Below are positions 38,461 to 39,676 of a stretch of DNA of 64,000 nucleotides, one piece after another. The DNA is from Escherichia phage QL01. The notes below the pieces were generated by a model that was not told where the DNA came from, did no database searches, and saw only the letters and a list, made by a program, of their open reading frames with translations. The stretch is taken from sequence record NC_028847.1. One strand, 5' to 3'. The translations under genes were made by a program, and so were the position numbers. Position 1 is the first letter of the stretch; each line of letters starts with the position of its first letter.

Positions 38461-38754
38461 TTATAGGTCTTCTAATGAGAACGTGTCTTTGAAAAGTTTG
38501 TTAACAACCAGGGCTATCACATCCCCATGACAGTCCTTAGGTTTACAGGTACACGCTATACGCATACCTCTAAGGGTTTCAAGATGTTCTCTTTTAATTT
38601 CGCCCGATTTTATTTTAGCAATAAAGTATTCTTTAAAGTTCTTGATATTTTCCTCGCGGGTTCCATCTTTAAATGGATTACCCCACATAGTTCCACGTTG
38701 GATATTGACATCAAAGTCTTCTTTATACTTGTTAACAACTCTGCAAACTCTCAT
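38461..38754 (-). CDS. DUF4326-like protein; start uncertain (track ORF extends to 38880, overlapping td)
   Basis: VVNKYKEDFDVNIQRGTMWGNPF....RE..I..F.EY.......LRGMRIACTCKPKDCHGDV matches recalled DUF4326 pattern (WGNPF...C.C.P..CHGDV). Confidence 0.5.
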   Translation of the reverse strand: MRVCRVVNKYKEDFDVNIQRGTMWGNPFKDGTREENIKNFKEYFIAKIKSGEIKREHLETLRGMRIACTCKPKDCHGDVIALVVNKLFKDTFSLEDL

Positions 38755-38815
38755 TATAGCACCAAATTCAGCCCAACCATAATAACCAAAAACAGAGTAC
38801 AGATTATTTGAATTT

Positions 38816-39676
38816 TCATACAGCCATTTTAGCCTTAATAGTAGGGTGGGACTCATAACCAATGAGTTTAAAATCTTCATGGACCATATGCTCTGTTACC
38901 CAATGAAGCTGTAATGTCGTGCTCCAATCAGAGAATCCTTCAGGCCAATTAATTTCCAGTTCACAAAGCTCTTTAGGTTCGCGACGAAGAACTTCCTGGC
39001 ATTGTTCAACGTGGTTAGAATAGATGTGCGTATTGCCGCCTGAGAACACTAAATCGCCTGGAATAAGATTACACATCTTAGCTACAATATGCACAAGAGC
39101 GGCGTAAGAGGCGATATTAAATGGCAATCCTAAGAACACGTCAACAGAACGCTGATACCACTGGAGGTCAAGATGACCATTACGGACGTTGAACTGGTAA
39201 AAACAATGGCATGGTGGAAGAGCCATCTGGTTAATTTCAGCAGGGTTCCATGCTGATACGATTTGACGACGGTCATTGGGCATTTTCTTAATGCGTTCGA
39301 CAATCTCTACAACCTGGTCGATACCACCAAAATCTCGCCATTGTTTCCCGTATACAGGACCCAGTTCACCACTATGATAGCCTAGGTCTTTAGCCTGGTT
39401 TTCATAGTTCTCGTCCCAAATAGTTTTACCTTCAATTAGCGAACCATGAGTACGTTGACGAAGGTCATTAACGTTGGTTGAACCTGAAAGGAACCAAAGG
39501 AGCTCAGCAATACAGGCTTTCCATGCTAATTTTTTAGTTGTTACTGCTGGGAAGCCCTGAGTTAAATCAAAACGTAATTTAGTACCGAACAGTGCAATTG
39601 TACCGGTGCCAGTACGGTCGTCAGTTTCGTAGCCATTTTCCAGGATATCTTTAATTAAAAATTGGTATTGTTTCAT
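38816..39676 (-). CDS. td: Thymidylate synthase
   Basis: 286 aa; active-site region [11 protein letters not shown]; uninterrupted ORF. Confidence 0.95.

Follow-up and report, generated by a model that had tools for sequence, protein, structure and literature searches.

The gap between td and nrdA in Escherichia phage QL01 (NC_028847.1), part of the 64,000-nucleotide (nt) stretch analysed here (the window; positions are counted from its first letter), holds on its minus strand what is almost certainly, in identity as well as in gene structure, the Dhakavirus orthologue of bacteriophage T4 nrdA.1, a gene for a standalone DUF4326 protein. Comparison with related phages predicts a product of 97 amino acids (aa) starting at ATG 38754, and places ahead of it an unannotated open reading frame (ORF) of 21 codons, hereafter the mini-ORF, that occupies the apparent spacer between td and nrdA.1. 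The gene as such is ordinary and already known, being annotated both in the near-identical phage Bp7 and in T4; what is added here is its correct start, the conserved mini-ORF, natural relatives that lack nrdA.1, and a sharper, though still unproven, functional picture. Taken as a whole, from the identity of the gene through to a proposed function in nucleotide or ADP-ribose (ADPr) chemistry, the account given below is our best explanation, with a probability that we place only just short of even.

Identity of the gene

The features on which the argument rests are:

38461-38754, minus strand: nrdA.1 orthologue encoding a 97-aa standalone DUF4326 protein (ATG 38754-38752, TAA 38463-38461)
38512-38745, minus strand: DUF4326 domain, residues 4-81 of the 97-aa protein (hmmscan)
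38755-38880, minus strand: rejected N-terminal extension of 42 codons, of which 65 nt lie inside td (stop codons, lost ATGs)
38754-38819, minus strand: unannotated hydrophobic mini-ORF of 21 codons (ATG...TAA), in the third frame (translation and conservation)

A sequence-only reading of the window had proposed a DUF4326-like gene at 38461-38880, between nrdA and td. A minus-strand ORF of 139 codons does occupy this range and contains MWGNPF and CTCKPKDCHGDV, and searching it against the Pfam hidden Markov models (hmmscan) bears out the family call, PF14216 (DUF4326) matching with 76.7 bits (E 2.2e-21) against a cut-off of 25. Since this match runs over positions 1-81 of the 82 in the profile, both the observation and its interpretation as DUF4326 are correct; the alignment involves residues 46-123 only of the 139-codon ORF, and the 97-aa form scores 78.2 bits against the same cut-off.

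Over a 701-nt piece spanning the ORF, the window shares 99.6% identity with Bp7, WG01 and IME540, all Escherichia phages (Dhakavirus, Tevenvirinae), and 90% with JS98. The Bp7 record calls the gene "nrdA.1, similar to bacteriophage T4 NrdA.1", and T4 NrdA.1 itself, encoded in the same td-nrdA gap, is 65% identical over residues 39-139 (E 4e-37, tblastn). The proposed position between td and nrdA also holds, with Pfam identifying DHFR_1, Thymidylat_synt, three ribonucleotide reductase (RNR) large-subunit domains and Ribonuc_red_sm in the neighbouring genes, in agreement with the Bp7 and T4 annotations. The order in this operon is frd-td-nrdA.1-nrdA-nrdB, all early nucleotide-precursor genes, and the frd-td-nrdA-nrdB block is conserved. 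The sequence-only reading, which had recommended comparing the td-nrdA content with T4 and its relatives, had recognised neither the orthology with T4 nrdA.1 nor the mini-ORF.

Start codon of nrdA.1

The start had been described as ambiguous, with the longest frame overlapping the 3' end of td by 65 nt. Both statements are correct (38816-38880, the first 65 nt of the long ORF, are shared with the td ORF at 38816-39676), and it is the 5' end of the originally proposed range that is too long. Annotated product lengths are in conflict: 97 aa are given for Bp7, KIT01 and MN04, with coordinates equivalent to those in the window, 131 aa for JS98, JS10 and ESCO10, and 139 aa for CLB_P2 and UniProt A0A9E7CMF5. 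We aligned seven Dhakaviruses and then compared twelve Dhaka- and Gapriverviruses. The only start conserved in all relatives compared is ATG 38754, corresponding to M43 of the long ORF; the M1 ATG (38880) is replaced by a TGA-containing frame in JS98, JS10 and ESCO10, and the M9 ATG (38856) is ACG in CLB_P2, KIT01 and MN04. Stop codons interrupt the extension frame in six of the twelve relatives (KIT01, VR20, MN01, RZ, SP18 and PSD2001), the stop in KIT01, a Dhakavirus, resulting from a change of GCT GAA to GCT TAA four codons ahead of M43, and pairwise codon differences in this frame comprise 63 synonymous and 585 non-synonymous changes. Homologues begin 0-5 residues ahead of VVNKYK, and the Pfam domain, like almost all homologues, begins no more than five residues away from the short start. 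From the conserved ATG, the lost M1 and M9, the stop codons, the codon differences and the starts of the homologues, we infer that the product of nrdA.1 is the 97-aa protein encoded by 38461-38754.

That a long form (139 or 131 aa, as annotated in CLB_P2, JS98, JS10 and ESCO10) is instead the real product, overlapping td, is scarcely credible. The long frame is open in the window, several GenBank records as well as UniProt A0A9E7CMF5 annotate it, and the match of the 139-codon ORF to PHROG_464 (E 5e-46) is aligned from residue 12; the interrupted frames (including that of a Dhakavirus), the unconserved M1 and M9 and the short start of the Pfam domain and nearly all homologues nevertheless speak against it, and the mostly non-synonymous substitutions are of the kind that suits the td frame and the mini-ORF frame. 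The 139-aa and 131-aa products were thus rejected by the comparative analysis of relatives. The over-long N-terminus in UniProt A0A9E7CMF5, JS98, JS10 and CLB_P2 hides the conserved 21-codon ORF, and correcting the start improves annotation across the whole phage genus.

A conserved mini-ORF between td and nrdA.1

The 61-nt "spacer" between td and nrdA.1 is filled by the mini-ORF, whose ATG overlaps the td stop codon (GTATGA, i.e. an ATGA overlap) and whose TAA shares its last A with the ATG of nrdA.1 (TAATG). In all twelve of the Dhaka- and Gapriverviruses compared it is uninterrupted and has the same length of 21 codons. The 27 variable sites are distributed 9/4/14 over codon positions 1/2/3, and pairwise differences in the mini-ORF frame amount to 316 synonymous versus 295 non-synonymous, compared with 42:526 and 63:585 in the other two frames. 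Replacements remain within I, V, A, L and F, giving a mean Kyte-Doolittle hydropathy of ~2.0-2.3, and the change in KIT01 that creates the long-frame stop is, in the mini-ORF frame, a synonymous CTG-to-CTT substitution. By tblastn the peptide is present at full length in 79 phage records, of Dhaka- and Gapriverviruses, always at the position of the td-nrdA.1 junction, and it is annotated in none of the 15 phage records inspected. We regard these patterns as evidence that the mini-ORF frame is under selection.

In the Gapriverviruses VR20 and RZ the mini-ORF is preceded, again with a TAATG overlap, by a 65-aa ORF that has a good GAGGT Shine-Dalgarno sequence; the mini-ORF ends in an ATGA overlap with nrdA.1, and no Shine-Dalgarno sequence stands before the nrdA.1 ATG. 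In the window, too, nrdA.1 is without a strong Shine-Dalgarno sequence of its own. The simplest reading is that ribosomes are probably handed from td (or from gp190, which precedes the mini-ORF in Gapriverviruses) to the mini-ORF and from there to nrdA.1 by termination-reinitiation. The mini-ORF may in addition have a role of its own, e.g. as a membrane micro-protein, since its peptide is conserved, strongly hydrophobic and persists in phages without nrdA.1. An extended -10-like element overlapping the nrdA.1 ATG, TGCTATAAT, was dropped as a candidate, as the last codons of the mini-ORF explain it and it is not conserved in VR5.

nrdA.1 as an accessory cassette, and the nrdA leader

The following features flank nrdA.1 or lie downstream of it:

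38754-38759, minus strand: CTATAA direct repeat, left copy (alignment with VR5 and SP18)
38461-38466, minus strand: CTATAA direct repeat, right copy (alignment with VR5 and SP18)
38458-38465, minus strand: TATAAATA, the T4 late-promoter consensus, overlapping the nrdA.1 stop codon (exact match)
38412-38441, minus strand: 12-base-pair hairpin in the nrdA leader, ~10 nt upstream of the GAGG Shine-Dalgarno sequence at 38400-38403

In Dhakavirus VR5 and Gaprivervirus SP18, td and the mini-ORF are followed directly by the nrdA leader, without nrdA.1. Aligned to the window, both phages are missing exactly 293 nt between the CTATAA repeats, and both retain the mini-ORF along with TATAAATA and the hairpin of the nrdA leader. 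Judged by these alignments, nrdA.1 is an accessory cassette with a presence/absence polymorphism and is dispensable for at least some coliphages, and VR5 and SP18 constitute natural nrdA.1-minus comparators for a fitness or anti-defence phenotype. The content of the gap differs by lineage, consisting of nrdA.2 and then nrdA.1 in T4, and of gp190, the mini-ORF, nrdA.1 and then an nrdA.2-like gene in Gapriverviruses, while Aeromonas phage 44RR2.8t has td, nrdA.1 and then an endonuclease; the td-nrdA gap is therefore plastic within a conserved block.

The stem-loop and the TATAAATA-like element that the sequence-only reading had noticed just downstream are both real sequence features. Because both persist in phages without nrdA.1, we assign them to the nrdA leader and not to nrdA.1. 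The octamer is not enriched in the window, where it occurs 8 times for an expectation of 6.7 and 33 of 100 shuffles give at least as many. At 38458-38465 it is invariant in Dhakaviruses; VR20 and RZ have CATAAATA, and in VR5 and SP18 the same octamer is formed at the stop of the mini-ORF. The 72-nt intergenic leader piece folds better than all 200 shuffles (z = -3.2), and in JS10 and ESCO10 the upper part of the stem is altered, one of the changes being a compensatory swap of A-U to U-A, with the stem kept. At the equivalent place in the leader, VR20 and SP18 have an unrelated GC-rich hairpin; between Dhakaviruses and Gapriverviruses the leader hairpin keeps its position but not its sequence. 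In the predicted leader folds (of the window, and of locus L008 at ~905-990) a short upstream UCC/UUCC pairs with the nrdA Shine-Dalgarno sequence GAGGAA, which may point to regulation of nrdA translation or of the stability of its mRNA. Nothing supported the hairpin as an intrinsic terminator (a terminator scan returned no sites; the stem is AT-rich, there is no T-run, and AACAUAUUGAGG follows) or as a member of a known RNA family (there was no Rfam match).

Distribution and context of the DUF4326 family

A tblastn search finds the DUF4326 domain in 2,009 phage records from many host genera, and an exhaustive profile search gives 20,880 cluster representatives at 50% identity (E <= 0.001). 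Structural matches in BFVD are to DUF4326 proteins of bacteriophages, haloarchaeal viruses, pithoviruses, pandoraviruses and marseilleviruses. The family thus comprises ~21,000 clusters, extending from bacteriophages to haloarchaeal and giant viruses, and has no solved structure. For a family of this size, with neither a solved structure nor a tested function, T4 nrdA.1 represents a tractable entry point.

Among 20 multi-domain representatives, seven carry SLOG-type domains (YAcAr, mSLOG, DprA-like), four are tandem DUF4326 proteins, and RNase H, Dam, an RNA polymerase fragment and a STAS-like domain occur in one representative each. Independent neighbourhoods contain RNase HII, RNase H, a split DNA polymerase A, dGTP diphosphohydrolase and, in Kuttervirus, gp46/gp47; one shows a faint Macro match. 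Iyer, Burroughs and Aravind saw in DUF4326 a "potential enzymatic domain" that would connect NAD+ signalling to DNA modification (PMC7824862), and in 2022 proposed that it belongs to the rhodanese/cysteine-phosphatase (C-X5-R) superfamily (PMC9503650). The contextual basis of these predictions is reproduced in part by our data.

The clearest NAD-linked context found is that of a metagenomic phage contig (DUF4326 at L018 5001-5330), which carries a Nudix-NAMPT-DUF4326-SLOG(YAcAr)-PRPP-synthetase-like cluster; this cluster resembles phage NAD+ salvage or reconstitution modules. Apparent links to RNR elsewhere in the family were set aside. The Kuttervirus neighbours of 777 aa and 371 aa are not RNR, the PhiSH19 paper showing a gp46/gp47-type recombination nuclease. 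Both the "NrdA-like" match to PHROG_24867 (E 1.5e-6) and the label "NrdA-like ribonucleotide reductase" in ETEC-TG (L010 3914-4282) are name transfers from nrdA.1, and neither is evidence of reductase function.

Conserved residues, predicted structure and alternative functional assignments

Two regions of the protein stand out:

38671-38685, minus strand: WGNPF loop, residues 24-28, with G25 and N26 nearly invariant (family alignments)
38521-38553, minus strand: C68-T-C70-K-P72-K-D-C75-H76-G-D78 cluster, between the predicted strand 65-68 and helix 76-87

Nine residues (R20, G25, N26, C68, C70, P72, C75, H76 and G77) are invariant or at least 96% conserved in sets of 55, 109 and 267 sequences or domain copies, and the window protein has all of them. 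Across the 267 domain copies there is no substitution at C68, C70 or C75 and a single one at H76, while N26 is substituted in 4, R20 in 5 and D78 in 18. In tandem DUF4326 proteins (P0110, P0195, P0238) the degenerate copies lose R20, G25 or N26 and keep the Cys cluster, which suggests a structural or metal-ligand role for the cysteines and a functional site at the Arg and Asn positions. This pattern of conservation fits a structural or metal-binding Cys cluster with a separate ligand-binding or catalytic role for R20, N26, R33 and D78, and fits a nucleophile of the protein tyrosine phosphatase type less well.

The AlphaFold2 model (predicted local distance difference test 94.5, predicted template-modelling score 0.86) has strands at residues 5-8 and 65-68 and helices at 33-50, 55-59 and 76-87. 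Foldseek found no match to it in the PDB, and phmmer and profile searches of the PDB gave no sequence match to a solved structure, returning only ComFB at E 0.9 and spurious TPR matches. The PADLOC defence library yielded no match, and NCBIfam only sub-threshold ComFB. The local similarity to ComFB involves residues 56-88 (38491-38589, minus strand), aligned with PDB 4wai over 33 residues; the NCBIfam ComFB model NF052654 matches with E 0.005 and 16.8 bits, far below its cut-off of 120, and does not place the protein in that family. The resemblance points weakly toward a metal or structural role for the cysteines, but is far below threshold.

These data bear on a non-enzymatic alternative, in which NrdA.1 would be a small adaptor or regulator of the Zn-binding, Cys3-His kind that, as part of the machinery for replication and nucleotide precursors, binds a partner protein, nucleic acid or a second messenger of nucleotide type. 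We consider this unlikely. The alternative is consistent with the Cys cluster and His being the most inviolate positions, those that degenerate tandem copies keep, and with the weak similarity of the segment ACTC..C..DV.AL..NK to the Cys-cluster region of ComFB; the RNase H, Dam and RNA polymerase fusions and the positions in replication modules would likewise be compatible with an accessory binding domain. However, N26, R20, G25, R33 and D78 are also nearly invariant in diverse members, as is typical of a catalytic or ligand pocket, and the similarity to ComFB is confined to ~30 residues at a score of 16.8 where 120 bits are needed. Moreover, the Cys region of the window protein is predicted to be strand-loop-helix, whereas its ComFB counterpart is, as we presume, helical.

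Two enzymatic assignments were also considered. The first, which we regard as very improbable, makes DUF4326 a minimal and divergent N-glycosidase related to NADAR/YbiA that would take ADP-ribose off bases or cut a ribosyl N-glycosidic bond. NADAR/YbiA gives the best, but weak, structural matches and shares with DUF4326 an ADP-ribose/nucleotide functional neighbourhood in the literature; yet there is no profile similarity, NADAR has no Cys cluster, and DUF4326 is about half its size. Homology to NADAR (PF08719) was rejected after hhalign proved negative both against YbiA alone and against a profile of 35 NADAR sequences (0.6%). The second is the rhodanese/cysteine-phosphatase placement, from which the NrdA.1 loop, C70-K-P-K-D-C75-H76, differs in containing no Arg, so that neither C-X5-R nor C-X4-R is found; a conserved His sits at the N-terminus of the helix. 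The protein also has only three short predicted strands, and its cysteines behave as structural or metal ligands. An hhalign comparison with a single GlpE sequence, a weak test of rhodanese homology, was negative. With the Foldseek search of the PDB empty and the profile comparisons negative, neither the rhodanese/phosphatase nor the NADAR assignment is confirmed.

Proposed function of NrdA.1

Our preferred reading, which we advance tentatively and at somewhat less than even probability, is that NrdA.1 is a small enzyme whose substrates are nucleotides containing ribose phosphate, or ADPr derivatives. In such an enzyme the never-substituted C-x-C-x-P-x-x-C-H motif, at a strand-to-helix junction, would form a Zn-type metal site or else a phosphate-binding loop built on cysteine, and R20, the WGNPF loop (through N26), R33 and D78 would contact the substrate. 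The part recognised would be the ribose-phosphate of nucleotides or of metabolites derived from NAD+ or ADP-ribose, and the reaction might be e.g. a phosphoesterase step, in line with the predictions of Iyer, Burroughs and Aravind. Its role could be to support the nucleotide supply of the phage, or to blunt host defences that use NAD/ADPr or nucleotide chemistry. We count the size of the family, the near-invariant residues, the pattern in tandem copies and the confident AlphaFold2 model in favour of an enzyme-like character, and the SLOG fusions, the td/RNR and other neighbourhoods and the two published predictions (PMC7824862, PMC9503650) in favour of a link to nucleotides or ADPr.

Several points weigh against this proposal. 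The arginine of C-X5-R is missing, the loop being C-X4-C-H, and retention of the cysteines in apparently inactive tandem copies means that a structural metal site fits better than a catalytic nucleophile. Many neighbourhoods are runs of small early genes with no informative partner, and only one of ~13 independent contexts is clearly NAD-related. In the searchable literature DUF4326 proteins figure only in predictions and as annotations, and experiments on them were not found. Finally, both translation of the mini-ORF and the coupling of td, mini-ORF and nrdA.1 are inferred from sequence alone.

A bolder version, to which we attach a low probability, is that NrdA.1 is a new-fold metallo- or cysteine-enzyme which destroys or recycles a molecule derived from NAD+, ADP-ribose or nucleotides, and whose synthesis is gated by the mini-ORF. 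Were this so, virulent phages, archaeal viruses and giant viruses would carry an enzyme directed at e.g. a defence signal or a toxic by-product, and in Dhaka- and Gapriverviruses its production would be gated by a membrane-type micro-ORF of 21 residues bridging td and nrdA.1.

Neighbouring genes

The genes surrounding nrdA.1 are:

38816-39676, minus strand: td, thymidylate synthase, intron-free (PF00303, 330 bits)
36139-38394, minus strand: nrdA, ribonucleotide reductase large subunit (PF02867, PF00317, PF03477)
34907-36115, minus strand: nrdB (Ribonuc_red_sm, Pfam)
39673-40254, minus strand: frd (DHFR_1, Pfam)

Both td and nrdB are uninterrupted ORFs in the window. T4 td has a group I intron with I-TevI, and T4 nrdB likewise has an intron. 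The longest ORF in the frd frame (39673-40488, minus strand) encodes 271 aa from a GTG start, extending ~78 codons beyond the DHFR of Bp7 (582 nt) and overlapping frd.1 (DUF5417, 40262-40501) in a different frame, and here, too, the longest ORF is misleading.

Comparison with known systems

The closest known counterparts are T4 NrdA.1 and the annotated orthologues in Bp7, JS98, KIT01 and other phages, which have in common with the window gene the protein family, the td-nrdA position, the size class and the setting in an early nucleotide-metabolism operon; to the Bp7-group phages the identity of nrdA.1 is 99-100%. The T4 locus differs in that nrdA.1 is preceded by nrdA.2, whereas in the window it is preceded by the 21-codon ORF. 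In T4 the nrdA.1 stop overlaps the nrdA start, and consequently neither the hairpin nor TATAAATA is present there, whilst in the window nrdA.1 is followed by a 66-nt leader with the hairpin. At the protein level T4 NrdA.1 reads WGNYVG where the window protein has WGNPF. Within PF14216 and PHROG_464 the latter is a typical standalone member, with a full-length match to the hidden Markov model and every conserved residue present; other members of PF14216 are fused to SLOG, RNase H, Dam, Macro or NADAR domains, or are tandem repeats.

Translational coupling through short ORFs with overlapping stop and start codons (ATGA, TAATG) is a general phenomenon in phage operons. The arrangement in the window resembles it in having such overlaps on both sides of the mini-ORF, followed by a weak or absent downstream Shine-Dalgarno sequence, but differs in that the mini-ORF peptide is conserved, strongly hydrophobic and kept where nrdA.1 is absent.

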